Assembly (NCBI GenBank): GCA_049840735.1
Contig: JASGJN010000014.1
Location: forward strand, 96,001-160,000
DNA from: Anaeromyxobacter sp.
Lineage (GTDB): Bacteria > Myxococcota > Myxococcia > Myxococcales > Anaeromyxobacteraceae
Direction of reading: 5' to 3'
DNA: 64,000 nucleotides
Shown one piece after another: positions 24,682 through 39,590 of this stretch. The notes under the pieces are model-generated. The model was not told the origin of the DNA, ran no database searches, and was given only the letters and a program-made list of their open reading frames with translations. A program made the translations under genes and the position numbers. Position 1 is the first letter of the stretch. Each line of letters begins with the position of its first letter.

Positions 24682-24930
24682 GTGTCCGACCCCAAGGATT
24701 CGAAGGCCGATCCTCTCGCGTTCCCGGAGTTCGTGACGCTCTCGCGACCCCAGCCGCTCTGGACGGTGAAGGAGGTGGCCGAGCGGCTGCAGGTCTCGAC
24801 GGACTACATCTACGCAGCAGCCAGCCGAGGCGAGATCCCCTGCGTGCGCCTGGGCACCAGCCTCAGGTTCCACTACTCGGACGTGGTCACGTTTCTGAAT
24901 CGGCTCCGAACGCTTCCGAAGGAGCGCTGA
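24682..24930 (+). CDS. Excisionase-like HTH protein
   Basis: LWTVKEVAERLQVSTDYIY...GEIPCVRLGTSLRF; GGAGG RBS; precedes integrase. Confidence 0.8.
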   Translation: MSDPKDSKADPLAFPEFVTLSRPQPLWTVKEVAERLQVSTDYIYAAASRGEIPCVRLGTSLRFHYSDVVTFLNRLRTLPKER

Positions 24931-24966
24931 CGCTCCAACGCAGCGTGCGGAGCCTCGAGGTATCGC

Positions 24967-27207
24967 GTGAGCTACCGCCGCAAGGGGTCACCGTATTTCT
25001 GGATCTCCTACGTCGACCACTCCGGGCGACGCGTCCGCGAGAGCACCGGGTTCGTCCGCAAGGCCCAAGCCGACATCCTGGAGCGCGCCAAGCGCAACGG
25101 AGTCGCCTTCGCGCGGGGAGGTCTTCCGGATCCGGACGCCGGGAAGCGGACGACGTTTGCCGACCTCGTGGACTGGTACTGGAAGCGACACGGCAAGAAG
25201 CTCGAATCAACCTCGCTCGAGGGATCGGTCCGCAAGCACCTCGTGCCGAAGCTTGGACATCTGCCCCTCTCGGCCATCACGCCTGCGCTCCTGCAGGAGA
25301 CGCTCGACGACCTCGCCGACGTTCTGAAACCGTCCAGCCGGAACCACCTCCGCGGGAACGTGGGGACGATGTTCAAGCGCGCCAGCAAGCGCGGCGTTGG
25401 CCTCTGGTCAGGACAGAACCCCGTCGAGGAGGTCGAGCGCGCCCCGAGGGTTCAGCGTACGGCGGATCACCTGAACCTGGATGAGGTCGGGCCGCTGCTG
25501 CAGGCCATGCATGGTCAGTGGCGCTGGGTCGTTGCCACCGCCCTCTTCACCGGACTTCGCGAAGGCGAGCTCTTCGGCCTGCTCAAGTCCGACCTCAACT
25601 GGACCCAGCTCGAGATCACGCTTCGGCGGAGCTGGGACAAGGAGACCACCAAGTCCCGCAAGGACCTGGTGATCCCCATCGCGCGAGACCTGGTGCCCTA
25701 CCTCCGCGCCGCGGTGGACTCGTCCGACTCGGTGCTCGTCTTCCCACGGCGGGACGGGCGCATGCACAACGACGAGGTCGACATCAACCGGCGCATCGCG
25801 GTCGGGCTGAAGGCGGCGGGCCTGATCATCGGCTTCGACCACAAGTGTCGGCGCCCGGGCTGCGGGTTCAGGGAACGCAGGAGCTCGAGCAAGCTGACGA
25901 AGTGCCCGACCTGCAACTTCACCCTGTGGGTGTCGCCGGTCCCGCGGCCCATCACCATCCACAAGCTCCGGCACACCACGGGCACGCTGCTCGCCAAGGC
26001 CGGGGTGCCCATCCACATCATCCAGCGCATCCTCGGGCACGCCGATATCCGGGTGACGAGGGAGCACTACCTGCACCTGGACACGAACGATGCCAGGGCG
26101 GCGCTGGACACGAAGCTGGTGTTCCCGGGGCTGCCCAGCGCGACCGATGCCGCCCCAGGCACAATCCAGGCACAGAGCCTCATGCCTGGAAAAGTCGAAG
26201 GCCGCGACCCGACGGTTTCCCGTGCGAAGTCGCGGCCTTCTGAGTCGGGGAGACAGGATTTGAACCTGCGACCCCTTGGTCCCGAAGAAAGTCTACAGAA
26301 CCACCCCAACCCCCTTCAGACACTCCGAATTCGCCGTCAATGCTTGCGGCCCAGCGCTTCTGCGAAGACGCTCACCTTGCATCACGGGGCAGCATTTCCT
26401 ATCATGACACCGCACCGAGAACGCACCGACGCACCGAGAACGCACCGAGCCGGAGGGCGCCATGAAGCGGATCGAGCTGACCACCGAGTGGCTGGGCAAC
26501 TGGGCGCCAATCAAGGAGACGGAGGTCTCCGACCGGGGCTGCAAGGGGCTCGTGATCCGGGGCGGCCCAGCTGGCGGCCGGACCTTCTACCGGTGGTCCG
26601 ACGTTCGCGACACCGCCACCGGCAAGGTCCGGCGCCGGCGCGTGAAGCTCGGACGCTGGCCGGCTCTGTCTCTCTCCGAGGCCCGGAAGGCCGTCCACGA
26701 CGCCCGCGAGACCCTCAAGGCGGAGAGGCCCGGCTCTCCCGACCTCTCTGTCGCCCAGGTCGCAGAAGCGTACCGCCGCGACATCCTCGCCCAGCGCGAG
26801 CCCGCTTCCCTCGCCTGGTCCTGGGGCATCATCCGGACCCACGTCCTCGCGGCGAGACCCGATCCCAGGGGACCGGAGTTCCGGGAGTGGCCGGCCCGCA
26901 CCGTCCGCGCCCCCGACATCGCAGCCGTCATTCGCGCCGCCAAGATGGAGCGCACGGTCGAGGTCAGAACCGAGGATGGCGGTACGGTTGCGCGGAAGCT
27001 GGGCGGGGCCGCCGCCGCTCGCGCCGCCCTCCGCGAGGTCAAGGCCATGTTCGCCGCTGCTGTAGGCTCCGGCTCCCTCGAGATGAGCCCCGCAGCGGTC
27101 CTCCAGGCGAGCGCGCTCGGCCTCAAGGGAACGAAGCGGGGACGCTTCCTGGACAGCAACGAACTCGCTGCACTGTTCGAGGCTCTAGACCTGAACGCGC
27201 TACTTGA
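24967..27207 (+). CDS. Tyrosine integrase of the left island; conserved part ends ~26120, frame runs through att (26239-26286)
   Basis: TGLREGEL, HKLRHT, ILGHAD, HY; Zn-ribbon insert CRRPGC...CPTC; tRNA-derived SGRQDLNLRPLGPE. Confidence 0.85.
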   Translation: MSYRRKGSPYFWISYVDHSGRRVRESTGFVRKAQADILERAKRNGVAFARGGLPDPDAGKRTTFADLVDWYWKRHGKKLESTSLEGSVRKHLVPKLGHLPLSAITPALLQETLDDLADVLKPSSRNHLRGNVGTMFKRASKRGVGLWSGQNPVEEVERAPRVQRTADHLNLDEVGPLLQAMHGQWRWVVATALFTGLREGELFGLLKSDLNWTQLEITLRRSWDKETTKSRKDLVIPIARDLVPYLRAAVDSSDSVLVFPRRDGRMHNDEVDINRRIAVGLKAAGLIIGFDHKCRRPGCGFRERRSSSKLTKCPTCNFTLWVSPVPRPITIHKLRHTTGTLLAKAGVPIHIIQRILGHADIRVTREHYLHLDTNDARAALDTKLVFPGLPSATDAAPGTIQAQSLMPGKVEGRDPTVSRAKSRPSESGRQDLNLRPLGPEESLQNHPNPLQTLRIRRQCLRPSASAKTLTLHHGAAFPIMTPHRERTDAPRTHRAGGRHEADRADHRVAGQLGANQGDGGLRPGLQGARDPGRPSWRPDLLPVVRRSRHRHRQGPAPAREARTLAGSVSLRGPEGRPRRPRDPQGGEARLSRPLCRPGRRSVPPRHPRPARARFPRLVLGHHPDPRPRGETRSQGTGVPGVAGPHRPRPRHRSRHSRRQDGAHGRGQNRGWRYGCAEAGRGRRRSRRPPRGQGHVRRCCRLRLPRDEPRSGPPGERARPQGNEAGTLPGQQRTRCTVRGSRPERAT
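26197..26240 (-). terminator. Hairpin abutting att, probable tRNA terminator supplied by the left island
   Basis: GAAGGCCGCGAC...GTCGCGGCCTTC 12-bp inverted repeat, followed by a short T-run on the minus strand. Confidence 0.55.
26239..26286. repeat. att core: duplicated 3' half of tRNA-Pro
   Basis: 48 bp identical to 38689-38736. Confidence 0.95.
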
Positions 27208-27831
27208 CGGGACGGCCAAGGACCAGAAGCTCTCCAAGACGGTTCGACTCGGTATCGCGTTCCTGCATTACGTGCCCGTGCGCACACACAGCCTTGTGGC
27301 GGCTGAGTGGAGGGAGTTCGACCTTGAGGCCTGCCGGTGGACCATCCCTGTCGCAAGGATGAAGCTCCACCGCGATGACCGCGCCGAGGCTCGACCGTTC
27401 GTCGTGCCACTGCCGCCCACGGCCATCGCCATCCTGAAGCGCCTCCAGGAACAGGCGGGCGGTAGCCGCTGGGTGCTGGCCAGCCCCAAGGACCCCAAGA
27501 AGCACGTCGGGGCCAAGGTGCTCGTTCGAGCCCTGGCGCGCCTCCAGGAGAGCGGGCGACTTTCCTTCGGATCCCGACTGACCATCCACGACGCCCGGCG
27601 CACCTGGCGCCGATGGGCCGGGAACTCGGCGTTTCCTTCGAGGTCGCCGAGAAGAGCCTCGCCCACGCGCTGCCTGGCGTCGCCGATACTTACGCCAAGG
27701 CCGAACTCGTCGAGCAGCGTGCGGACTCGGCCAACCTCGTGGCTGCCGCATTCGACCGGATTCGGCTGGGCCAGAATGCTTCCGTGGTTCCCATGGCCGC
27801 CCGTTCGCGCGCGGAAAGACCACGGCCGTAG
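26462..27831 (+). CDS. P4-like tyrosine integrase with N-terminal arm-binding domain (frameshift ~27620, likely a G-run error)
   Basis: SDRGCKGLVIR...KLGRWPALSLSEAR; HDARRT; continues GELGVSFEVAEKSLAH...TY in the shifted frame. Confidence 0.85.
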
Positions 27832-28061
27832 GAGGGGTGTATAATGGTCTTAGGTGGACTAACGCAGAGTGCCATCGAGCGAGCCGGTACCAAGAAACTC
27901 GCCCACCTTGGCGGATTGTCCTGCTAGAACGCGCCCACCCCTCGTCAGGGAGCGCGCTCATATCGCCCGCCGCACTGATTGTGCGGCCCACATAGTTGGA
28001 CCTTTTCGACGCCCAGGGTGAGCCGGCCACCCGGGGAGGATCTTATCGAAAAGGCCCCGCT

Positions 28062-28238
28062 ATGCCCGGCAACAAGCCCAGTTCACAGCCAAGCAAGCAG
28101 CTCAACATCCTGATCGACGCGGAGATCAAGGACCGCATCGTCGCGTTCGCGCGGCGGCGTGGTTGCTTCCTGCGCCGCGCAGTTGCTGACGCCATCGCGT
28201 CGTATCTCGCGAACGAGGAGAAGGGGGTGCGCCATTGA
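28062..28238 (+). CDS. Ribbon-helix-helix-like regulator
   Basis: KQLNILIDAEIKDRIVAFARRRG...AVADAIASYL. Confidence 0.6.
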   Translation: MPGNKPSSQPSKQLNILIDAEIKDRIVAFARRRGCFLRRAVADAIASYLANEEKGVRH

Positions 28239-28442
28239 CCGCCCCCGCCTCTCGCGTCCTCACTGGCCCTGAGTGCTGCGCCGCCTTCGGGGTCAGCCCC
28301 GCCACCTGGAGCCGCTGGGTCAAGGCAGGCTACGCCCCTCGGCCCGTCCGCATCGCTGGCCGACCCCGTTGGCTTCGCGCCGAGATTCGACTCCTTCCTG
28401 CAGCGCCTGGTCGAGGACCGCGACGGGTGCTCCAATGCGTAG
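28235..28442 (+). CDS. AlpA-like HTH regulator/RDF (frameshift ~28386)
   Basis: VLTGPECCAAFGVSPATWSRWVKAGYAPRPVRIAGRPRWLRAEI. Confidence 0.75.
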
Positions 28443-28866
28443 CCCCTTCCCTATCGACTTCTCGCGTCCTGTCGAGCTCACACCGAAGGAGCTGCGTCTC
28501 CGGCTCGAGGACCTCCTCGGCCGTAGAATTTCGGCGAGGACGTTCGCCTACTGGAGGAAGCAGGGCTGGGTCGCCGAGCCCTTCGCCCGCCGCCCCCGCG
28601 GCTACCGCGGTGAGTGCTGTGTGTGGACCACCGACCAGGTGCCGCGCATGGCAGCGAGTATCGCCGCGCACGTCCGCCGCTCCGCGACCAAGAAGGAGAT
28701 CGACGAGCGGGTGAGCAACGGTCGGGAGCGGCACAACGAGCGTCGGCGCGAAGCCGCGGACATCGCCCAGATCGCTAGAGCGTGCGCAGAGAACGGGCTC
28801 TACGCCATGGCGCGCGTGTCGTTGATGAGCCTGCTCAGGTCCCACGGGGTCGAGGTGCAGTCATGA
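28435..28866 (+). CDS. MerR-like HTH protein
   Basis: ISARTFAYWRKQGWVAEP; overlaps neighbouring genes. Confidence 0.55.
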   Translation: MRSPFPIDFSRPVELTPKELRLRLEDLLGRRISARTFAYWRKQGWVAEPFARRPRGYRGECCVWTTDQVPRMAASIAAHVRRSATKKEIDERVSNGRERHNERRREAADIAQIARACAENGLYAMARVSLMSLLRSHGVEVQS

Positions 28867-29072
28867 CGGAACGCATCCTCGGACTGCCCGCGGGCTGGCG
28901 TCGCGCCTGCAGCGACCTACCGACCATCATCCGTGCTCGCCGCGTCTTCATCCTCGCAGATGGAACCACCCTCCGAGTGGACGACGAGGGTCACCTTGGC
29001 CACGTGATGCAGGGTGGAACGCCTGGGCTGCGCTCGATTGCTGCCGATCCCGACCCCGGGAGGCGTCCATGA
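28863..29072 (+). CDS. Small hypothetical protein
   Basis: ATGA overlaps at both ends. Confidence 0.5.
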   Translation: MTERILGLPAGWRRACSDLPTIIRARRVFILADGTTLRVDDEGHLGHVMQGGTPGLRSIAADPDPGRRP

Positions 29073-29284
29073 TGAGTTCTGGCCAGCTCGAACTCCAGGA
29101 ACGATGTCCGCGCTGCGGTTCACCGCTCCGAACTCTCGCCTCCCTCGCAGCCCTTGCGCGCACCGCCGAAATAGCGCTCAGCCGTCGCAAGCTCGCCCTT
29201 CCCGACTCCGTCCCTGCAGCGCTCAAGGTGTTGGCGTCTTCGTTGCCGTGCCACGCCGGGACTTGCTTCGAGGGAACAGCATGA
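29069..29284 (+). CDS. Small Zn-finger-like protein
   Basis: CPRC...CHAGTC; ATGA overlaps. Confidence 0.5.
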   Translation: MMSSGQLELQERCPRCGSPLRTLASLAALARTAEIALSRRKLALPDSVPAALKVLASSLPCHAGTCFEGTA

Positions 29285-30399
29285 CCGAGGCCACCGCCGA
29301 GAGATTCGTTGGCTGCGGCGACATGCTCGAAGAGGTTCGGTCGCATGCTGACGCCGCGATTCAGAAGCACGAGGCAGCGATCGCGATGCGCCGCGAAGGT
29401 CTCCTGTCCGTCAACGAGATCTTCGCTCCGCTCCCCCCAGTCGACTGGCTCTGCCAGCCCCTCGACATGGCCGCCGGCGCCCCCGTCCTCTTCGCCGGAT
29501 ACGGGTTCAGCGGCAAGACGGTGTCTGCCCAAGACCTCGCCCTCGCCGTAGCAACAGGCGGCCGCGTCTGGGGCATGTTCAACGTCCGCAAGGGTCGCGT
29601 CCTGCACCTCGACTACGAGCAGGGCGCCTATCTCACCCGCACCCGCTATCAGCGCCTGGCGCGCGCCAGAGGCCTCAGCGCAGCCGATTTGGAGGGTAGC
29701 CTCGTCCTTGCCCCGCTGCCGTCCTGGTACCTCGACAACGACGCCCAGGACCGTCTAGCCCGCCTTGCCGAAGGCTTCGACCTCCTGGTGGTGGACTCGT
29801 TCCGCGCCGCCTGCCCTGGGACGGACGAGAACTCGTCGGACGCCCGGATCCCCCTCGACCGCCTGAACCGCATCGCCGAACGAACCGGCGCCACCCCTGT
29901 CGTCATCCATCATGCCCGGAAGCCGACCAGGGACGCCCAGGGCGGTGCCCGCATGTCGATCCGCGGCTCCGGCGCCATGTACGACGCCTGCGGGTCCGTC
30001 CTGGTCTTCGCCGCCGAGAAGGGCGAACCCATCACCGTGGAGCACGAGAAGGCCCGCATCAGCGGCCGCACCCACGATGCCTTCCGACTCCACATCGTGG
30101 ACGTGGAGATTGCCGGGGACCCCAACGCCGGCCTTCGCGTGACCGCGCTCGCCAACGCCGACAACCCGCCTGCTCCGAAGGCCTTCGTCGAGCTCAAGCG
30201 CCGCATCCTCGAGTTACTCAAGGAGGAGGGAGGCATCGTAACCGGCGGAGTGAACGTCCTCAGGGCGCGTCTGGACGCCCGCAAGGAGGACGTGTCCGCC
30301 GCCATCCACGAACTTGAGCGGGAGCATGCCCTGATTCGGGGAGGTACCTATCGCGCCCCCACTCTCAGACTCACGGGAACCGATTGTGACTCCCGGTGA
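29281..30399 (+). CDS. RepA/AAA_25-like replicative helicase with C-terminal wHTH-like tail
   Basis: PPVDWL, GYGFSGKT, VLHLDYE, LLVVDS, DEN, VIHHARK, RGSGA. Confidence 0.85.
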   Translation: MTEATAERFVGCGDMLEEVRSHADAAIQKHEAAIAMRREGLLSVNEIFAPLPPVDWLCQPLDMAAGAPVLFAGYGFSGKTVSAQDLALAVATGGRVWGMFNVRKGRVLHLDYEQGAYLTRTRYQRLARARGLSAADLEGSLVLAPLPSWYLDNDAQDRLARLAEGFDLLVVDSFRAACPGTDENSSDARIPLDRLNRIAERTGATPVVIHHARKPTRDAQGGARMSIRGSGAMYDACGSVLVFAAEKGEPITVEHEKARISGRTHDAFRLHIVDVEIAGDPNAGLRVTALANADNPPAPKAFVELKRRILELLKEEGGIVTGGVNVLRARLDARKEDVSAAIHELEREHALIRGGTYRAPTLRLTGTDCDSR

Positions 30400-30530
30400 C
30401 ACGCTCAGGCCCGTGCCCCGCTGCGTTCGGATTGGTTCCCGGCCTAAAGGCCGGGAACCGATTCCGATCCGAACCGCGGTCCGGGTCATCGGTTCCGGGA
30501 ACCGATTGGGAACCGAACGGGAACCGATTC
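30375..30530. promoter_or_regulatory. Putative iteron-type replication origin
   Basis: Multiple direct and inverted GGAACCGA(TT) copies at and just after the end of the helicase gene. Confidence 0.65.
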
Positions 30531-30609
30531 CATTGCTGACCCCCTCTACCCTCGTTGCATAGGTTGCACGGGTACGAAGGAAGCGCTGCGTTCGCTAGTC
30601 TTCGAAGCA

Positions 30610-30917
30610 TGCCGCGAACCAAGCGAGAGCCAGCGCCGTCCGCCCCCAGGCCCCTTGGGCTCGACCTGGCCGGTGCCGCGAGCGCCGGTGAGGCCTACGA
30701 GCGGATCGCTCGGGCGTTCGACGAGGGCCGTCTCTCGGCCGCCGACGCCCGGATCGCGGTGGACCTGCTCAAGATCCGGAGCACGGTCGTCGCTGCCGAG
30801 GAGTTCCGGAGGCGGCTCGAGCTCGCCGAAGCGGCCGCCCGAGAGGCGCAGAGGGCCTCTCTCCCGGCTCGTCGTCAGGTCATCGAGGTCGAGGAGGGCC
30901 GCCTTGAAAGCAACTGA
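30610..30917 (+). CDS. Small helical protein, possible terminase small subunit-like
   Basis: ARAFDEGRLSAADARIAVDLL...EEFRRRLELAE, similar to the C-terminal half of DUF5681-type proteins. Confidence 0.45.
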
Positions 30918-31130
30918 CCCCTTTCTCCCCGAGAATGCGGCCGCTCTCACGCCAGGCGTTTCTGCGGACTTGCGCCACCTCGGTGCGGCCCTCGGTGCGT
31001 TCCGGGGCCACCGGAGCGCGATGTTTCCGGACCTCGGCGGTGGGGCTCACCGGCCGGCCCCGTGGCGTCCTGCGACCCCCTCCGCGCCACGGGTCCGGTC
31101 GGAGCCCAGTTCCAAACTCCCGGTGCATGC

Positions 31131-32114
31131 ATGAACAAGGAACTCTCCCGCCGCGAGGCCATCCGGCAGGCTCGAACCGCGCGGCGCCCCTCCCAGCGGC
31201 CCCAGCCTGCGCGGGAAGAGGTCCAGGCGTTCGAGGCTGACCTGGAGATTGCCGCCAAGGCCCGCATGCTCTCGCCGGCGCAGCTGCAGGCCATCGCCGC
31301 CAGGGATCCTGGCTTTCTCCCCTCGCTGCAGTCGGCCCTGGCCACCGAGCAGCGCTTCCGTGAGTCCACCCTGCGACACACGTACGCGGAGGAGGTCGCG
31401 AAGCGCCACCAGGACATGGCGACCGATGACCCTTCCGGCATCTGGGCGGGGACCAACCCCATCGCCCGCGGCCTCCGCGACCCAGAGCATCAGGCGACCA
31501 CGGCTCGCTTTCTCGAGCAGAACCGTATCAGTTGGCAGGGCTACCCGAGCCCATCGGCCGCCCTGTTCGCGTTCGCGGCCAAGGTTGCCATGGGGAGACA
31601 CCCGAGCCGCTCAAGGGGCGAGAGCTGTTCAAGCCGGGGCGCCCCGTCGCCGAGCAGTTGGCTGAGCGATTCCCCGATCTCGGCAACGCGCAGGAGATTG
31701 CGGCCAGCCTGGAGAATCTCCAGCGGGCAGCCCATGAGATCCGGTACCTGCACAAGCTGAGGGCCTCAGATTTGGCGGAGCCGAAGCGCGAGCCCAGTGC
31801 GGACATGAAGCGGCGAGCCCAGGAGCAGACCGACCGCCGGGAGGCGATTGAGCGGGCCGGCAGGGACGTTGGATTCAAGGAGGAGCCGACAGAGCTCGGA
31901 TTCCGCCATGAGCGGGTACCTGGCTGCGGCCGCGGCTCACCTTGAGGGCCGGGAGCTCAACGTCCGCTTCACCCCTGATGCCGCCAAGCAGATCGAGCGG
32001 GACATGAACCGTGAGGCGCCGAAGGACGAGAGGCGCGCGGCCCTTGAGGCTGCCGCGCAGTCCGTCGGCGGCAACCCGACCAGCTCTGGAGACACCGACC
32101 ATGCCGAAGGCTGA
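31131..32114 (+). CDS. Hypothetical helical protein, apparently broken by frameshifts (~31595, ~31905)
   Basis: Three consecutive overlapping coding-like frames. Confidence 0.45.
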
Positions 32115-32793
32115 AGCACCCGTGACACTGCTCGACTTCGTCCAGGACGAGCTCGCTGAACTCCCGAAGCTCAAGGCCCAGCGCGACGCAGCGGATGCCG
32201 AGGCCCGGAAGATCGCCTCCGCCGCTGCAACCATCCAGGACAAGATCGACCTCCGGCGCCACAATGAGGGGCCGGTGCATCGCCAGGCGATCCTCGTTCA
32301 GGCCGCACTCGACGGCAAGCCGCTACCGCCTGAGCCCCCGCCCCCGCCCGGCGCCTCGCTCTCCGACCTCGAACTCGCGCTGATGGGCCTGGAGGAGAAG
32401 CAGAAGCAGGCCGAAGAGCGGGTGGCGGAGCTGCACGGCAAGCTGCGGACGAAGGTCTTCGACCTCTTCCCCCTGGCCGCTGAGCGTGCGGCCGCCGCGT
32501 ACCTCGAGGCGGCCCAGCGGTTGGGCGAGCTGCACGCGGCCATCGGGGCCTGCAACCACCTCCGCACGTCCTTCGAGCCGCTCAAGCCTCTCGTCGGGCA
32601 GGAGTGGATGAAGGTCCTCGTTCCGTCCTCCGGCCTGCTTCGGACGCTCGAGGGCCGGGGGCTCACCCTGAACTTCCAGACGGTCCTCTACGGCGGCAGC
32701 GAAGAGGGCACGACCAGGGGCGCGGTGCAGGCGTACCAGGCTGCCAAGGCGAGCATCACGGCCCTGCTCGGCGAGTGGCCGCTCGGGAGGTGA
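32101..32793 (+). CDS. Coiled-coil hypothetical protein
   Basis: Long heptad-like helices with a central proline hinge PPEPPPPP. Confidence 0.65.
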   Translation: MPKAEAPVTLLDFVQDELAELPKLKAQRDAADAEARKIASAAATIQDKIDLRRHNEGPVHRQAILVQAALDGKPLPPEPPPPPGASLSDLELALMGLEEKQKQAEERVAELHGKLRTKVFDLFPLAAERAAAAYLEAAQRLGELHAAIGACNHLRTSFEPLKPLVGQEWMKVLVPSSGLLRTLEGRGLTLNFQTVLYGGSEEGTTRGAVQAYQAAKASITALLGEWPLGR

Positions 32794-32797
32794 GGAC

Positions 32798-34192
32798 ATG
32801 GTGGCTCGATACCCACTGGAAGATTCGCGCTACGCGGGACGTAGCGCCCCGGAAGCAAGCCAGGACACGGGCCTGGTGAGGCTGCAGCAGCCCGACACCG
32901 GGCTTCCGCCGGACGCCCTCGCGCGGCTCATGGAACTCGGGACCCTGGATGAGCGCGGGCAGCAACTCCAGGATCAGTTGGCCATGGCCCAGTCGCTCCG
33001 GATGGGCTCCGGCAAGCGGTACGGCACCGGCATCGGCGCCGCGCTCGGCGGCCTCGGTGACATGGTCAACGCATACAACTCCCGCCAGCAGACGGCCGCC
33101 ATCCGGAAGGAGCAGGCCGACCTTCTGCAGAAGAAGGACGCTGGACGCGCTGAGCTGACGAAGCTCATGGGCGACGGTACTCCGACCGATCCGTTCGCGC
33201 TGCTCACGGCCAACGACGCCGAGGCGCAGCGGCTCTCGACCCAGTACGCGCAGGCGATCGCCCGGCAGCGCCAAATCGGCCTCCTCGGGATGCTCTCTGG
33301 CGACAAGGTGCTGGCTGGCCTTGGCCAAATGACCTACGGCGATGCTGGTCGCCAGCAGGCGGCCTTGGGCGAAGCTGCCTCCACGCGCCTACAGCGCGCC
33401 CTCGAGGCCCAGCGCATGGCACAGGGACAGTCTCGCTGGCAGGCGGAGCAGGACCAGCGGGCGCAGGAGCAGGCCGCAACCCAGGCCTACCGGACCACCC
33501 AGCTCGGCCTGGACCGCGAACGGCTGTCCCAGGACGGGTGGAGCGCGCAGGCCGATCCCGTCACCGGCGGGATCGTCATGTTCAACCGCAAGACCGGAGA
33601 GGTTCGTCCGCTCGGTCCTGGCGGCGGGGCTCCGAGCCCCGGGTCCGTTGTGCCCAAGCCCAAGGACCTCGAGAACGATGCACAGGCACTCGGCAAGGAC
33701 CTGGAGCCCCTCGCGGCGATGTTCAACGATTTGCGCACGCTCAACGCCGCTGCGGCAGGCCCAGACCAGTCGGGCTTCGGTCCCGTCGCCGGTCACCTTC
33801 CCGACTTCCTGACCAGCAACGAGGGCGTGGCCACCCGGCAGGCGGCCCGACGCATCATGGCTGGGATCATCAAGATGCAGTCAGGTACGGCGGCCTCGGA
33901 AAAGGAAGTCGACCGGCTTCTGGCCTCCCGAGGCCTCGGCGAGACGGCGACCCCAGCGCAGTTCAGCCAGGGCGTGGCGTCCCTTGTTCGCGACGCGGAG
34001 GCAGCAGCCCGGCGAAGTGAGGCCAAGTACCACCCCGACGTGGTGAAGGCCTACCGGGCGCGCGGCGGGTTCTCGTCCGATGCACTGAGCCTCGGCGGAC
34101 CCAAGCGCATCAGCAATGACGCTGAGTACGAGGCGCTCCCGTCCGGTGCTGAGTTCGTTGATCCAGAGGGAAACGTGCGGCGCAAGCCGTAG
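32798..34192 (+). CDS. Podovirus-type DNA ejection/internal virion protein-like
   Basis: Q/A-rich helices, DPVTGGIVMFNRKTGEVRP, SGTAASEKE, C-terminal YEALPSGAEFVDPEGNVRRKP. Confidence 0.65.
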   Translation: MVARYPLEDSRYAGRSAPEASQDTGLVRLQQPDTGLPPDALARLMELGTLDERGQQLQDQLAMAQSLRMGSGKRYGTGIGAALGGLGDMVNAYNSRQQTAAIRKEQADLLQKKDAGRAELTKLMGDGTPTDPFALLTANDAEAQRLSTQYAQAIARQRQIGLLGMLSGDKVLAGLGQMTYGDAGRQQAALGEAASTRLQRALEAQRMAQGQSRWQAEQDQRAQEQAATQAYRTTQLGLDRERLSQDGWSAQADPVTGGIVMFNRKTGEVRPLGPGGGAPSPGSVVPKPKDLENDAQALGKDLEPLAAMFNDLRTLNAAAAGPDQSGFGPVAGHLPDFLTSNEGVATRQAARRIMAGIIKMQSGTAASEKEVDRLLASRGLGETATPAQFSQGVASLVRDAEAAARRSEAKYHPDVVKAYRARGGFSSDALSLGGPKRISNDAEYEALPSGAEFVDPEGNVRRKP

Positions 34193-34201
34193 GAGGCAGT
34201 C

Positions 34202-35789
34202 ATGGGCTGGCGAGACGCTCCCGTTGTTCAGCAGAAGCCAGCGGCGGCCCAGGAGCCGGGATGGAAGGGCGCGCCGGTGCTGTCGCCTGAGGCCCTCGCT
34301 GCCGCCATGCCCACCTCCGCCTCCCAGGCGTTCGGCCTCGGCGCTGCCCAGGGCCTGACGTTCAACCAGTTCGACGAGCTGTCCGGCAAGAACGCAGAGG
34401 TGGGTTCTCGCCTGGATGCTCAGCGCCAGTTCTCTGAGCCTGCCGGCCTTGTTCCGAGGGCGCTCAACGACATCCCCAAGGACGCGACCCAGGAACAGCG
34501 AGACGCGGCGATCAAGGCCGCGTATAGCGCTGAGCCTCGCATCGGCGACGGCATGGCGCCGACCCCTGGGCGACTCCGGAAACTGTACCCGGGCGTTCCG
34601 TACCTGCAGGCGCTGACCAAGTTCAAGGCGGACACCCTGGCTGCGCAGGGGTTCAAGTCCGAGCAGGAACGGTCGGACGCCGGCGTGAAGGCGTACCTGG
34701 ATCCCAAGAGCGCCGAGGCCGGCAAGGCCCTACGGGACAACATCCGCGCGTCCAGCGACAAGGCGATGGCGGACCGCCCCGGCGCGTTCATCGCCGGGAA
34801 CGTGGTCGGAAGCCTTCCCTTCGCGGCCCTCGGTGGCGGGGCTGCTGGCGGGAAGGGAGTCCCGCTTCTGACGCGCGCTCTGCAGGCCGCGAAGGCAGGC
34901 GTCGCTCCGGGGGCAGCCTACGGCTATGGCGCCTCGGAGTCCGACTCGGCAGGCGGACAGATTCGCGACACGCTGATGGGCGGTGCGCTGGGGGCAGGGT
35001 TCGGCTTTGCTGCTCCGTACCTCACGGCCGCGGCCGCTGCGCCGGTCAAGGCCGTGGGCAAGTTCGCTGCCGGCCGCGTTGCTGCGGCCGAGGCGAAGGC
35101 GCTCGAGGCGGCCCTGGCGAAGCAGACCGAGGAGCACGCCTCGCTGGTCGGCAAGTACGGCGGCCTCCGGCAGACCGAGAACAAGGCGATCCAGGCCCTC
35201 CTCAGCCTGGAGGAGTCCGGGATGCTGAATCCGGAGAACGCTGCAAAGCTGGCTGAGCTCAGGGCCTCCGGCCGTGTGGCCGAGGCGCTCAACGAGGCCG
35301 CCGCCAACAACCTTGAGTTCATGGGGCAGCGGACCCCGGCCGTCCAGGCTGCGAAGTCGGCCATGCAGCAGAGCGCCCAGAACGCCGAGCAGAACGTCGC
35401 CAAGGAGACGGCCCGTCAGCTCTCCGGGCAGATGCTAAAGCAGCAGATTGGCGACCGCGTGAAGCGCTACGGCATGCCGGTCGCTGGATCCATCATCGGC
35501 ACGGCCATGGGCGGCCCGGTGGGCGCGGCGGTCGGAGCCTTGGCCGGCGCCGGATTCGAGGCCCACGGTCCGCGCCCTGTTCCGGATGGCGCAGCACCCC
35601 TCGGTGCAGAAGGCGGTGTTCGGGACGCTCGCCCGCACTGAGGAGCAGGCGCGGATGCAGGCCCTCCTCATTGATGCGCTCCGCAGGTCGGGGCAGTTGC
35701 CGCTCACCGACGAGGCTGTTTCGAGGCTCGACGCACTCCGCCGGGCTGGGCAGCTCCCGATCACCGACGAGGCCGTCTCATCCGAGTAG
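34202..35789 (+). CDS. Second ejection/DNA-transfer protein-like (frameshift ~35555)
   Basis: WRDAPVV / WKGAPVL repeats, GAAQGLTFNQFDEL, glycine-zipper GAAYGYG...GGALGAGFG. Confidence 0.65.
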
Positions 35790-35792
35790 CGC

Positions 35793-37214
35793 GTGATGAT
35801 TGACCTTCGTGACCTCGGTCGTCAGCTTTCGGCTCTTGAGGCTCAACTCGAGGCTGCGCCTCTCGAAACCTGCCCGGTCTTCGTGGCCCGCCCCTATCAG
35901 CGGGAGCTCCTCGCATACCTGCGGAGCGGCGGAAAGCGCGCCGTCTGCGTCTGGCACCGCCGCGCGGGCAAGGACCTAACACTGCTGCACTGGATGAGCG
36001 AGGCAGCAGAGGACCGGGTCGGCCTTTACTGGCACCTTCTGCCCTCCTCTCGGCAGGCACGCAAGGCCATCTGGAACGGATTCCTGCGCGATGGTCGTCG
36101 CATCATCGACGCCGTCTTTCCGCCGTCAATTGTGAAGCGGAAGAACGAGACGGAGATGGTGCTCGAGCTCGAGAACGGTTCCATCGTCCAACTCGTGGGC
36201 TCTGATGGCTATGACCGTCTCGTTGGCTCGAACCCGATTGGCGTCACCTTCTCCGAGTTCGCGCTCTCCAAGCCCCAGGCCTGGGAGTACATCCGCCCGA
36301 TTCTCGCTGAGAACGGAGGATGGGCCTGCTTCATCTCGACCCCCCGAGGCCGTAACGCTCTCTGGAAGCTTTGGGAGGTCGCCGGGAACGCTCCTGGCTG
36401 GTTCCGCCAACAGCTCTCCATCTTCGATACGGGCGCCCTCCCCCCGTCTACGCTCGAGGAGGAACGAGCGGCCGGCATGCCGGACGCGCTGATCAAGTCC
36501 GAGTATCTCGTGAGTTTCGACGCCGCGCAGGTTGGCGCGGTGTACGGCGATCTGCTGGAGGCACTCGGGAAGAAAGGCGGCCTGGACAAGTTCCCCGTGT
36601 CCATCGAAGCGCCCGTGTACACGGTCTGGGATCTCGGGATGTCGGACTCTACCGCCATCTGGGCCTTCCAGGTGGTGGATGGCCGCCTCGAGGTCGTCAA
36701 CTACTACGAGGCCAACGGGAAGCCGCTCTCCCATTACTTCGAGCACGTGGAGCGGTGGCCGTACAAGTACGAGCGCCACTTCTTTCCGCACGACGCTCGC
36801 GCCCGGAACTTCCAGACGAACGTCACCACGATTCAGCTCGCCCAGGAGCGCCTGAAGGCTGTTGCGGTCGTTCCGCTGATGCCCGTTGAACAGGGGATTG
36901 AGGCGGCGCGATGGCTTCTCCAGACGGCCATTCGCATCCACCCGGATCAGTGCGCCGAGGGGCTAGAGGCGCTCCGGGCGTACTCGTACGAGTTCGATGA
37001 GGACCGGCGCATTTTCTCCCTGCGCCCCCGGCATGACTGGGCGTCGCACGGCGCCGACGCATTCCGCTACCTCGCTACGGTGGCCCGGCAGATGATCGAT
37101 CGGCAGCGAGCGCCGGAGAGGCGCCCACCGACTATCGCCGTTCCCAATGAGACGCTGGACGAGCTCTTCGAGCAGAGCGAGGACGGCGAGCGGCACTTAC
37201 GCGAACGCGTATAG
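35793..37214 (+). CDS. terL: Phage terminase large subunit
   Basis: PYQ, VWHRRAGKD, FSE, FISTPRGRN, WDLGMSDST, FPHDA, HDWASHGADAFRY. Confidence 0.92.
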   Translation: MMIDLRDLGRQLSALEAQLEAAPLETCPVFVARPYQRELLAYLRSGGKRAVCVWHRRAGKDLTLLHWMSEAAEDRVGLYWHLLPSSRQARKAIWNGFLRDGRRIIDAVFPPSIVKRKNETEMVLELENGSIVQLVGSDGYDRLVGSNPIGVTFSEFALSKPQAWEYIRPILAENGGWACFISTPRGRNALWKLWEVAGNAPGWFRQQLSIFDTGALPPSTLEEERAAGMPDALIKSEYLVSFDAAQVGAVYGDLLEALGKKGGLDKFPVSIEAPVYTVWDLGMSDSTAIWAFQVVDGRLEVVNYYEANGKPLSHYFEHVERWPYKYERHFFPHDARARNFQTNVTTIQLAQERLKAVAVVPLMPVEQGIEAARWLLQTAIRIHPDQCAEGLEALRAYSYEFDEDRRIFSLRPRHDWASHGADAFRYLATVARQMIDRQRAPERRPPTIAVPNETLDELFEQSEDGERHLRERV

Positions 37215-37356
37215 GCAAGTCCAAGCGCCGCTCGAACGTGGGGATTCAGTAGCCACTTCGCGAACCTAGCGATACAGGGCCTTCCTCCTGGTTGACACAC
37301 TAGAGATGGTCAACTAGTTGACTAGATAGCTGAACCCAACCAAGGGAGACGCCTGA

Positions 37357-37731
37357 ATGACCAGGACGAAGAGGTCAGGGACCAACGCGAGCGCGCTGTT
37401 GGCGCGCACGGAGCGGCTGTTGAATCTCAAGGACGGACCGGGCCTCGAGCGGGCGCGGAGCGCCATCCGCGCGGCTCTCATGACGCAGGGGCCGGCCGCC
37501 GGCGGAACGCTGATCGGCGGCCTGCTCCACTGCGCCAGCCTGGTGGGCATCGGCGCGAAGGCGGAGAGGGGCGTTCCCGCGCTCCAGGGCCATGTGGAGC
37601 CTGAGTTCCCGGCCGTCTACTTCGCCCAGGTGGCGGTCTACGCGGAGCACCTGGTCGAGGCGCTCACGGCCGAGCTCGACCTGGCCGAGAAGGACATCGC
37701 CGCACGCAGGTCCGCCCGGAGGGCCGCATGA
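37357..37731 (+). CDS. Hypothetical protein
   Basis: GGGAG RBS, coding-like bias, ATGA overlap with the next gene. Confidence 0.55.
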   Translation: MTRTKRSGTNASALLARTERLLNLKDGPGLERARSAIRAALMTQGPAAGGTLIGGLLHCASLVGIGAKAERGVPALQGHVEPEFPAVYFAQVAVYAEHLVEALTAELDLAEKDIAARRSARRAA

Positions 37732-37913
37732 GCCGCCAGAACAAGCGTTCCCGTGAGCAGCAGCTGAAGCAACTGTTCCCGGCCAGCTGGTCCGCCATGC
37801 TCGCTGCCAGCGAGGCGCTCAGGACCAACCGGGACCCCGAGGCGGCCGTCCCCAAGCTCCGGGAGTTGGCCCGAGAGATCCTCGCCTTCACCGACCCGCT
37901 CAAGCGGGCGTGA
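37728..37913 (+). CDS. Small hypothetical protein
   Basis: ATGA overlap. Confidence 0.5.
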   Translation: MSRQNKRSREQQLKQLFPASWSAMLAASEALRTNRDPEAAVPKLRELAREILAFTDPLKRA

Positions 37914-38012
37914 TCCGGCTGGGGCTCGTCAAAACGCCCGCCCCTTGGCGCTGCAGGTCGCGTTAGGCCGGATCCGGTACACTGGTCATCCAGTTCACCA
38001 AGGGGCGGGCGC

Positions 38013-38240
38013 ATGGCAAGGAAGAGGGTGGGGGCGGACATGGCGAAGGCGATCAAGGCGAGCGGCAAGGTCGGCCCTCGATCGGGCTTCGTTAAGGCCA
38101 CCTTCTCGCTTCTCCCCGAGCAGCTTGCGGCCGTAGTAACCGAGGCCCAGGATCGAGCCCAGGAGCGCGGAGTCGTTCGGGCCGACGCTTCAGAGGTGGT
38201 CCGCGAGGCCCTGGAGGCGTGGAGTAAACAGAAGCGCTAG
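38013..38240 (+). CDS. RHH-like DNA-binding protein
   Basis: VKATFSLLPEQL...ASEVVREALEAW. Confidence 0.6.
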   Translation: MARKRVGADMAKAIKASGKVGPRSGFVKATFSLLPEQLAAVVTEAQDRAQERGVVRADASEVVREALEAWSKQKR

Positions 38241-38261
38241 CGCAGCGCGACCAGGGATCCA

Positions 38262-38292
38262 GGCGGGCCGCTCAGCTGCGGCCCGTTTTCTT
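38262..38292 (+). terminator. Intrinsic terminator
   Basis: GCGGGCCGC-loop-GCGGCCCGT followed by TTTCTT. Confidence 0.65.
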
Positions 38293-38515
38293 ACGACTCC
38301 TCGACTTTGTGACCCCTGGCCTGAAGTCTCCCGCAGAGATTCGGCGAGAGCCCACCGATGAAGTTCGCTTCCCCTCCGCAGCCCTCGCACAGGAGGAACA
38401 CCCGGTCGCCGATTTTCCGCATACGCCAGCCCCGAGGCACGTGGCCTCGGGCCGCGTCGTGGGCCTGGGTAGCCCCGCACGCCGCGCACTCGAACGATGT
38501 GGCATTCGTGACCAT
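38291..38515 (-). CDS. Small CxxC-CxxC Zn-finger protein
   Basis: CAAC...PRGW...CEGC. Confidence 0.55.
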   Translation of the reverse strand: MVTNATSFECAACGATQAHDAARGHVPRGWRMRKIGDRVFLLCEGCGGEANFIGGLSPNLCGRLQARGHKVEES

Positions 38516-38640
38516 GGAGCCAGTGACATACCGCTCGGCTCCGTCATCGAAAACGCTGATCTCGGCGCAAGCGCACCGAAGAGCGCACCGAACCACAAAC
38601 CGCCAGGGGCGTGCACCGAGCACTGTGCGCCGGCAGACAA

Positions 38641-38674
38641 AGAAAAACCCCGCAAAACCAAGGGCTTTGCGGGG
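38641..38674 (-). terminator. Terminator downstream of tRNA-Pro, supplied by the satellite
   Basis: CCCCGCAAA...TTTGCGGGG hairpin, then a T-run on the minus strand. Confidence 0.65.
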
Positions 38675-38694
38675 CAGAAATGACGGTGTCTGAG

Positions 38695-38768
38695 TCGGGG
38701 AGACAGGATTTGAACCTGCGACCCCTTGGTCCCGAACCAAGTGCTCTACCAGGCTGAGCCACTCCCCG
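38695..38768 (-). tRNA. tRNA-Pro(CGG), integration target
   Basis: CGGGGAGTGGCTCAGCCTGGTAGAGCAC...TTCGGGA anticodon loop...GGTTCAAATCC...CTCCCCGA; CCA not encoded. Confidence 0.97.
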
Positions 38769-38948
38769 GTGCTGCGTCGCGCTGGAGCATCACCACGGGC
38801 CCGGGAAGCGCCGCGGTCCAACGCAAGGCCGCGTTTCTACTCAAGGACCCCCGGGGTGTCAAGCGCCGTCTCTCGCGAATCCGTCGCGGGGGTGGAAGGG
38901 CTGGAATGCGGGCAATTCCAGCGCGATCGGGGACGGCGGGGATCCCGG

Positions 38949-39590
38949 CCTTCGACTCCGCCGCCGCTCCGCGGCGGCTACGCTCAGGGCTGACCGGATC
39001 CGGTAGGAAGGGCTCGGCACGGGGGGCGCGGTGCAGCTGCGTGCCGGCGAAGCGGGGCCTGGCTTCGACTCCGCGGGCCCTGCGGGCCCGCTACGCTCAG
39101 CCTGACCGGATCATCCCGCATCAGGCTGACCGGATCGGGTAGGAAGGGGCTCGGCACGGGGGGCGCGGTGCAGCTGCGTGCCGGCGAAGCGGGGGCTGGC
39201 TTCGACTCCGCGGGCCCTGCGGGCCCGCTACGCTCAGCCTGACCGGATCCTCCCGCATCAGCCTGACCGGATCCTCCCGCATCAGGCTGACCGGATTGGG
39301 TAGGAAGGGCTCGGCACGGGGGGCGCGGGCAGCTGCGTGCCGGCGAAGCGGGGCCTGGCTTCGACTCCGCGGGCCCTGCGGGCCCGCTACGCTCAGCCTG
39401 ACCGGATCCTCCCGCATCAGCCTGACCGGATCCTCCCGCATCAGCCTGACCGGATCCTCGCGGCTCAGGCTGTCCGGGTCCGATCGAGGGCTCGGGCAGG
39501 GGGCTCTTCCAGCGCAGCTGCGTGCCGCCCTCGCTCCCGTTCGCCCTTCGACAGGCTCAGGGCGAACGGAGTGGACCGGCTCAGGGAGGC
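38949..39590. repeat. REP-like/BIME-like tandem cluster
   Basis: Three ~135-160 bp units containing CTTCGACTCCGC-hairpin-CTACGCTCAG plus short CTGACCGGATCCTCCCGCATCAG subrepeats. Confidence 0.85.

Follow-up and report, generated by a model that had tools for sequence, protein, structure and literature searches.

The window analysed here, 64,000 nt of Anaeromyxobacter sp. contig JASGJN010000014.1 (assembly GCA_049840735.1), contains a 12.4-kb island integrated at a tRNA-Pro gene (Table 1). Its genes run from a tyrosine integrase through an AlpA-type regulator, a replicative helicase and a likely replication origin to a candidate small terminase (TerS), two helical proteins (h1 and h2), two ejection-like genes (ej1 and ej2) and an intact large terminase (TerL). 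The last three genes are related to those of the Mx8/Mx9-like group, which comprises short-tailed phages of myxobacteria (PMC10281127). Because it has its own TerL and ejection-like genes and no detected capsid, portal or tail gene, the island is likely a phage parasite that borrows the shell of a helper.

Boundaries, gene content and integrity

The island is bounded by an exact 48-nt direct repeat whose copies lie 12,450 nt apart, the right copy being the 3' part of an intact minus-strand tRNA-Pro(CGG) gene (38694-38768); in the sequence, identity between the copies stops in the anticodon loop. A 29-nt piece of this attachment (att) repeat is found 2 times in the window, where chance would give 0.00 matches. 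Just inside the island ends are two clusters of GCACCGA repeats, seven in all, with four on the left and three on the right, so that the att repeats and the arm-like repeats of the original prediction were both recovered. The island is present once in the 6.67-Mb genome (26 contigs).

Scans of 26 island open reading frames (ORFs) against the Pfam and PHROG families, with E<=0.1 counted as a match, name the integrase, AlpA, the AAA_25 helicase and TerL with confidence, and origin-like GGAACCGA repeats were located at 30376-30527; all five had been proposed from the sequence beforehand. The ribbon-helix-helix (RHH) and helix-turn-helix (HTH) labels fared less well, with weak matches only (E 0.008 to 0.06) and one to an unnamed family at 0.001. 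No capsid, portal, scaffold, tail or lysis family was matched in these ORFs, TerL aside, as had also been proposed; neither was a head-tail adaptor or connector, and no remaining ORF is of portal size. In a check for portal and capsid genes, 15 phage and island queries gave nothing better than E 0.02 against the island, on the minus strand, and the capsid profile PF05065, run over the genome, matched on contig C13 alone. No portal, major capsid or tail gene follows the island terL, though the same PHROG library names these genes in the phage contigs of genomes G038 and G122.

Table 1. Features of the tRNA-Pro island, with window coordinates and supporting matches
Feature	Coordinates	Strand	Support
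Left att copy (duplicated 3' part of tRNA-Pro)	26239..26286	-	Identical over 48 nt to the right copy (38689-38736)
Four GCACCGA repeats, likely integrase arm sites	26412..26448	+	
Tyrosine integrase, one frameshift near 27620	26462..27831	+	phrog_1 E 6.7e-23, Arm-DNA-bind_3
Small likely RHH repressor	28062..28238	+	phrog_18157 E 0.008, weak
AlpA/excisionase-type HTH, frameshift near 28380	28235..28443	+	phrog_597 E 2.8e-8, phrog_66 E 3.6e-7
143-aa ORF, possibly HTH	28435..28866	+	phrog_908 (unknown) E 0.0013
71-aa Zn-ribbon-like ORF	29069..29284	+	42-44% matches in L181, L182, L183
AAA_25 replicative helicase without primase domain	29281..30399	+	PF13481 E 5.5e-35
GGGAACCGAT repeats, likely replication origin	30372..30540		Same repeats after L178 helicase
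102-aa helical ORF, candidate small terminase	30609..30917	+	
h1, ~327-aa helical gene, split into three pieces; may be a scaffold-like size factor	31131..32114	+	
h2, 230-aa coiled-coil hairpin protein, marker of island family	32101..32793	+	
ej1, likely ejection protein joining an N-part like Mx9 p89 to a C-part like p90	32798..34192	+	
ej2, likely ejection protein, Gly/Ala-rich, at the p91 position, with a frameshift near 35550	34202..35789	+	
Large terminase, intact	35793..37214	+	phrog_2 E 2.5e-24
Two small ORFs, 124 and 61 aa	37357..37913	+	No function found (family scans)
75-aa likely Arc/RHH regulator	38013..38240	+	phrog_6506 E 0.064, weak
Three GCACCGA repeats, likely arm sites; motif also at left end	38573..38619	+	
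Right boundary, att core inside intact tRNA-Pro(CGG)	38689..38768	-	

Five apparent frameshifts interrupt the island: one each in the integrase, alpA and ej2, and two in h1, because of which the h1 pieces are treated as a single gene. When the assembly was probed with 235 host-like proteins of genome G036, orthologues turned up for 176; 31 of those host genes are likewise split, giving 40 junctions in 195 kb (including a few double-counted shadow frames); at this rate the Poisson probability of five or more breaks in 11 kb is 0.08. The five frameshifts at this probability, the broken integrase and the fact that a related locus in genome G124 is a broken remnant speak for a decayed Mx8-like prophage remnant or dead chimera. 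Assembly error is nevertheless the likelier cause, since the breaks fit the indel rate of the assembly and the ej2 and integrase homologues continue unbroken through the break positions; both integrase pieces, for example, match the one-piece integrase of the related locus L184. Decay is also opposed by the presence of both att sites and both arm clusters, and by the helicase, origin repeats, h1 and h2, which have no match in the phage loci compared. The order ej1-ej2-terL, moreover, is not obtainable by one deletion of the phage order terL-portal-capsid-tail-ejection. A dead remnant is therefore improbable, and a satellite-type island, as opposed to a one-off prophage deletion, is supported both by this difference in gene order and by recurrence of the backbone in tRNA islands of 9.5-12.8 kb (see below), in agreement with the original prediction.

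TerL and the ejection-slot genes

TerL is full length, and carries what we take to be Walker A/B, coupling and nuclease motifs. Its best match among isolates is the TerL of Myxococcus phage Mx9 (44% identity). In a tree built from 59 of the top 60 database matches (an intein-bearing row was dropped, and the remaining 60 listed matches were left out) and eight located TerLs, it falls in a 12-member clade with a support of 0.995 (SH-aLRT 98.4 after removal of the long-branch G038 row), and the sister clade holds Mx9 and the G122 phage. Four TerLs of the island clade are ~70% identical. The four closest TerLs have in common a helical-looking N-terminal extension of ~22 residues (window 35793-35860) that is absent from the other 36 of the top 40, and the TerL of the G038 phage has a different N-terminal half.

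The state of this enzyme bears on whether the element is an interference or defence island, in which TerL and the ejection proteins would act as dominant negatives that poison helper assembly. Satellites that inhibit helper packaging have been described (PMC11417361), and the ejection set of the island is incomplete. The ATPase and nuclease motifs are kept, however, and the similarity among the four clade members is as for a working enzyme; interference is thus improbable.

The only other located clade member is a broken TerL in the G124 remnant (L019 10744-13070), where a tRNA-end-like stretch, short repeats, a TerS-like gene and the clade TerL lie between host-like genes, and no portal follows. 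The TerS-like gene, ~330 nt upstream of this TerL, is a homologue of the 102-aa island ORF (E 1.5e-4, z 8.9). For the unlocated members, co-occurrence with h2 was read from identical longest-contig size and source, which covers 20 of the 36 h2 homologues. TerL P0005 and h2 homologue P0149 both have a longest contig of 10,872 bp (Logan), and TerL P0006 and h2 homologue P0186 both have one of 13,558 bp (JGI). This coincidence occurs in 2 of 240 pairs of clade TerL and h2 and is absent from all 2616 pairs formed with the 109 other TerLs (P ~1e-4, by resampling). Because the h2 copies P0149 and P0186 group with the h2 of the sister island L178 (described below) and not with that of the window, the combination of TerL and h2 is likely present in both branches of the family.

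In Mx9 and the G038 and G122 phages, the head and tail genes are followed by an ejection slot made up of p88 (phrog_6121), a small gene and two longer ones, of 416-478 and 533-726 aa; the 533-726-aa gene (p91) is assigned to a PHROG 'DNA ejection protein' family in Mx9. Residues 36-135 of ej1 match Mx9 p89 (E 7e-8), and the hidden Markov model (HMM) of the ej1 family matches Mx9 p90 (E 1e-8), L208 (a capsid-bearing fragment, E 5e-81), L209 (a 41.7-kb viral contig, E 9e-34) and the same-slot genes of G038 and G122. The ej2 family HMM matches the next gene in both L209 (E 1e-25) and the G122 phage (E 3e-16), and the end of ej1 and the start of ej2 match the same gene junction in G038. When the ej1 model was compared with BFVD, 19 phage proteins were found at E<=0.001 with TM near 0.2, unnamed or uncharacterised save one with a glucosaminidase-like domain; a single 'DNA transfer protein' stands at rank 42 (E 0.007, TM 0.15).

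By homology, then, ej1 and ej2 are akin to the ejection-slot genes of Mx8/Mx9-like podophages, and on synteny plus this weak fold likeness they are graded as likely DNA-ejection proteins. Of the earlier description as two ejection-like proteins, the kinship to the slot stands. Since no homologue of p88, the first gene of the slot, was detected in the island, it would supply at most part of an ejection set. The genes are tightly packed, with spacings of 4, 9 and 3 nt from h2 through ej1 and ej2 to terL. A 57-nt tandem duplication (80% alike) lies at the end of ej2, just before terL (window 35673-35779).

Sister islands and the h1-h2 pair

Relatives of the helicase occur in 7 of 91 family genomes, at 8 loci, with 59-71% similarity to the helicase part of the relatives' primase-helicases; the primase domain is absent in the island. 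Half of these loci are repeat-bounded tRNA islands (9.5, 10.7, 10.9 and 12.8 kb), five carry a capsid gene and four a TerS. Contig ends truncate L184 and L182; L185 carries a serine integrase but no nameable packaging gene. Five loci (L179, L180, L181, L182 and L183) resemble phage-inducible chromosomal islands (PICIs), in that a capsid gene accompanies a helicase of the same family, and 4 of the 5 have TerS; L179 and L180 have a protease-capsid fusion, and L180 also a topoisomerase-like gene. The synteny sought in relatives is thus found in its backbone, and the ejection pair in no second island.

The closest sister, L178 of genome G036 (L178 3928-16746), is a 12.8-kb tRNA-Sec island that has in common with the window island a primase-less helicase (69%), GGGAACCGAT repeats after the helicase, h1 and h2. 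The island h1 is collinear with a 482-aa gene of L178 (z 5.8), and h2 is 35% identical to its L178 homologue. An ORF resembling the 75-aa Arc/RHH candidate was noted by eye near the L178 integrase. No capsid gene or TerL was detected in L178. The gene after its h2 is 36% identical, over the full length, to the gene following the ejection slot of the G038 phage; it is tail-fibre-like by position and by what is presumably a tail-fibre motif, and no family names it. Where L178 has this gene, the window island has ej1-ej2-terL. Two islands that share a backbone thus differ in which podophage virion genes fill this slot.

This variable slot is the basis of the main rival explanation, in which the element is a satellite with its own TerL, and ej1-ej2 are a recent one-off capture, dispensable and perhaps not loaded into particles. 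The other phage gene in the L178 slot, the lack of ej genes in any second island, the restriction of located ej1 and ej2 homologues to phage-type contigs, and the missing p88 gene all fit such a capture. Against it, the pair is full length save one assembly-like break and tightly spaced with h2 and terL, and no recent donor of ej1 is visible, since its closest homologues are only 40-61% identical. We consider dispensable cargo unlikely, and interference and a dead remnant fit less well than either this explanation or a satellite that uses its ejection genes.

With the frameshifts allowed for, the two helical proteins of the original description become the single ~327-aa gene h1 and h2. The h2 family comprises 37 cluster representatives, h2 included. 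Its AF2 model (pLDDT 94.5) predicts a long helical hairpin of coiled-coil type that carries a small alpha/beta part at its end, and on this model a capsid or portal fold is excluded for h2; h1, the other part of the region in which such a fold was to be looked for (31131-32793), was not folded whole. Fold searches with h2 returned generic coiled coils and no specific match, and the P4 capsid factors Sid and Psu are not among the listed matches; in ESM Atlas, a cluster with 20% Psu members appears at rank 27 of 30 (score 0.92). A PF07455 profile search gave no match anywhere, with the positive controls equally silent. A role of h1 and h2 in capsid remodelling may be proposed because they occupy the position of the capsid gene in sister islands, and because P4 Sid is elongated and helical (PMC6893505).

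Relation to known satellites and proposed life cycle

PICIs are defined by an integrase, a regulator, a primase-replicase, a capsid gene and TerS, and typically carry no other structural genes, while TerL is listed as a component specific to capsid-forming PICIs (cf-PICIs) (PMC10085698). The island is PICI-like in its size, near the 9.5-kb median, its integrase, AlpA regulator, replicase (the AAA_25 helicase) and tRNA site, and its lack of tail and lysis genes, and those of its sister islands that carry TerS and capsid genes count as classic PICI-like elements. It differs from PICIs in carrying TerL and likely ejection proteins, in having no capsid gene (optional in type B) or primase domain, and in offering a TerS candidate only. 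It is like cf-PICIs in having its own large terminase (PMC10085698), but no capsid, portal or head-tail adaptor was detected and its TerL belongs to the Mx9 podophage lineage. As first proposed, the island fits neither class, failing the former on its extra structural genes and the latter on the missing head; it appears to work like a PICI without formal membership, as a variant layout of a PICI-like satellite.

Other known systems match in part. P4-like satellites resemble the island in lacking a capsid gene and in having an elongated, all-helical protein of about the size of h2 (Sid) (PMC6893505, PMC10085698); they differ in that no Sid or Psu sequence or fold match was found in the island, and P4 is without TerL. 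P4 delta and epsilon were not named in the general Pfam/PHROG scans of the island ORFs, and no dedicated search was made. Mx9 (OQ709411) shares the TerL and ej1 relationships described above, and related prophage contigs occur in G038 and G122, whereas it has 53 kb, a portal, capsid and tail, DnaB-type replication, and a terL that precedes the head genes. The EPIPs of Mycolicibacterium are helper-dependent 11-kb satellites with a DNA-delivery component, but this is a tape measure and not an internal ejection protein, and they are of siphovirus type with a serine integrase and TerS only (PMC12822802). For marine satellites, the available portions of PMC9618062 name small terminases only. No headless layout of TerL plus ejection genes appears in the available portions of PMC13230959 and 10.1101/2025.02.15.638363, and our literature search, supplements being outside its scope, found no such headless satellite.

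We assign a probability of about 0.58 to the reading in which the island is a satellite of an Mx8/Mx9-like podophage that uses a packaging motor of its own to fill helper procapsids with its DNA and loads its own ejection proteins. Helper infection would trigger excision through AlpA and the integrase, and the helicase would replicate the circle from the GGGAACCGAT repeats. The h1 and h2 proteins may intervene in the assembly of helper procapsids, serving as size or scaffold factors, and the 102-aa protein together with TerL would then attach to the helper portal to package island DNA. ej1 and ej2 would join a p88-type protein of the helper for DNA delivery, and tails and lysis would be supplied by the helper. 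Of the predicted dependence on a P22/Mx8-like podovirus, the island type and the Mx8/Mx9 kinship of TerL, ej1 and ej2 were upheld, and the dependence itself stays a prediction. Weak tests of this genome revealed no Mx8-type helper. Mx8/Mx9-like phage contigs of 37 and 53 kb, G038:C120 (L021-L022) and G122:C456 (L016-L017), represent candidate helper types.

Several results weigh against this reading. At the packaging step, the 102-aa ORF has no family match in the Pfam and PHROG scans and does not match the gene at the same position in L178 (z -0.1), so that its TerS-like label is carried by the homologue upstream of the G124 TerL. For the helical pair, the scores of h1 against three phage scaffold-position proteins fell short of significance (z <= 2.6), and h2 reached hhalign values of only 0.8% and 0.1% against P4 Sid and Psu, with single-sequence templates. 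On the delivery side, a direct comparison of ej2 with Mx9 p91 gave nothing significant, the ej1 and ej2 families match neither the named ejection families of PHROG nor PDB sequences, and the p88 partner would have to come from elsewhere. As for recurrence, TerL, ej1 and ej2 have no match among the 8 helicase loci, the absence of TerL from L178 means that TerL is not fixed in the family, and the 24 contigs with ej homologues match no contig size of the TerL clade or h2. The evidence that capsid-less TerL islands recur is indirect, their gene content being read from matching contig sizes, and a shortage of long contigs in the TerL clade (0 of 10 against 12 of 48, p 0.10) is not significant.

A broader proposal, which we hold as tentative and rate at somewhat under even odds, is that headless satellites which exploit Mx8/Mx9-like podophages form a recurring family, defined by h1-h2 and a satellite-specific TerL clade. 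Its members would have a slot for captured virion genes, filled by ejection proteins here and by a tail fibre in L178, and h2 would be a new capsid-size factor. In the known division as given in the sources at hand, PICIs redirect the helper motor via a small terminase and cf-PICIs build their own head with TerL. An element that lacks a head yet brings its own TerL and ejection proteins would, if true, be a third division of labour, and a satellite family borrowing only shell, portal and tail would be the inverse of cf-PICIs. Two questions become testable, namely whether a helper portal can serve a foreign TerL, and whether the range of cells that receive DNA from a podovirus particle is set by ejection proteins. 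The finding also points to satellites in myxobacteria, where the available text of one virus survey names satellites only in its references.

The same genome carries another island at tRNA-Pro(GGG), on contig C13 (263200-280950, L303), with a repeated tRNA 3' end, an integrase-like ORF, a TerS-like ORF (272118-272546, by eye) and an HK97 capsid gene (PF05065, 273367-274653); it is a classic PICI-like element. Within the window, a second element lies in tandem to the left of the att copy (24760-26292); it has a short ORF resembling an HTH/excisionase protein and, from 24967, an intact ORF resembling a tyrosine integrase (named by eye), the frame of which runs into the att copy. The part of the window left of the att copy (1-26239) has lower GC and contains IS-like and HNH-like ORFs. 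Just beyond the end of tRNA-Pro, three to four palindromic REP-like repeats of 137-159 nt occur at 38945-39479.

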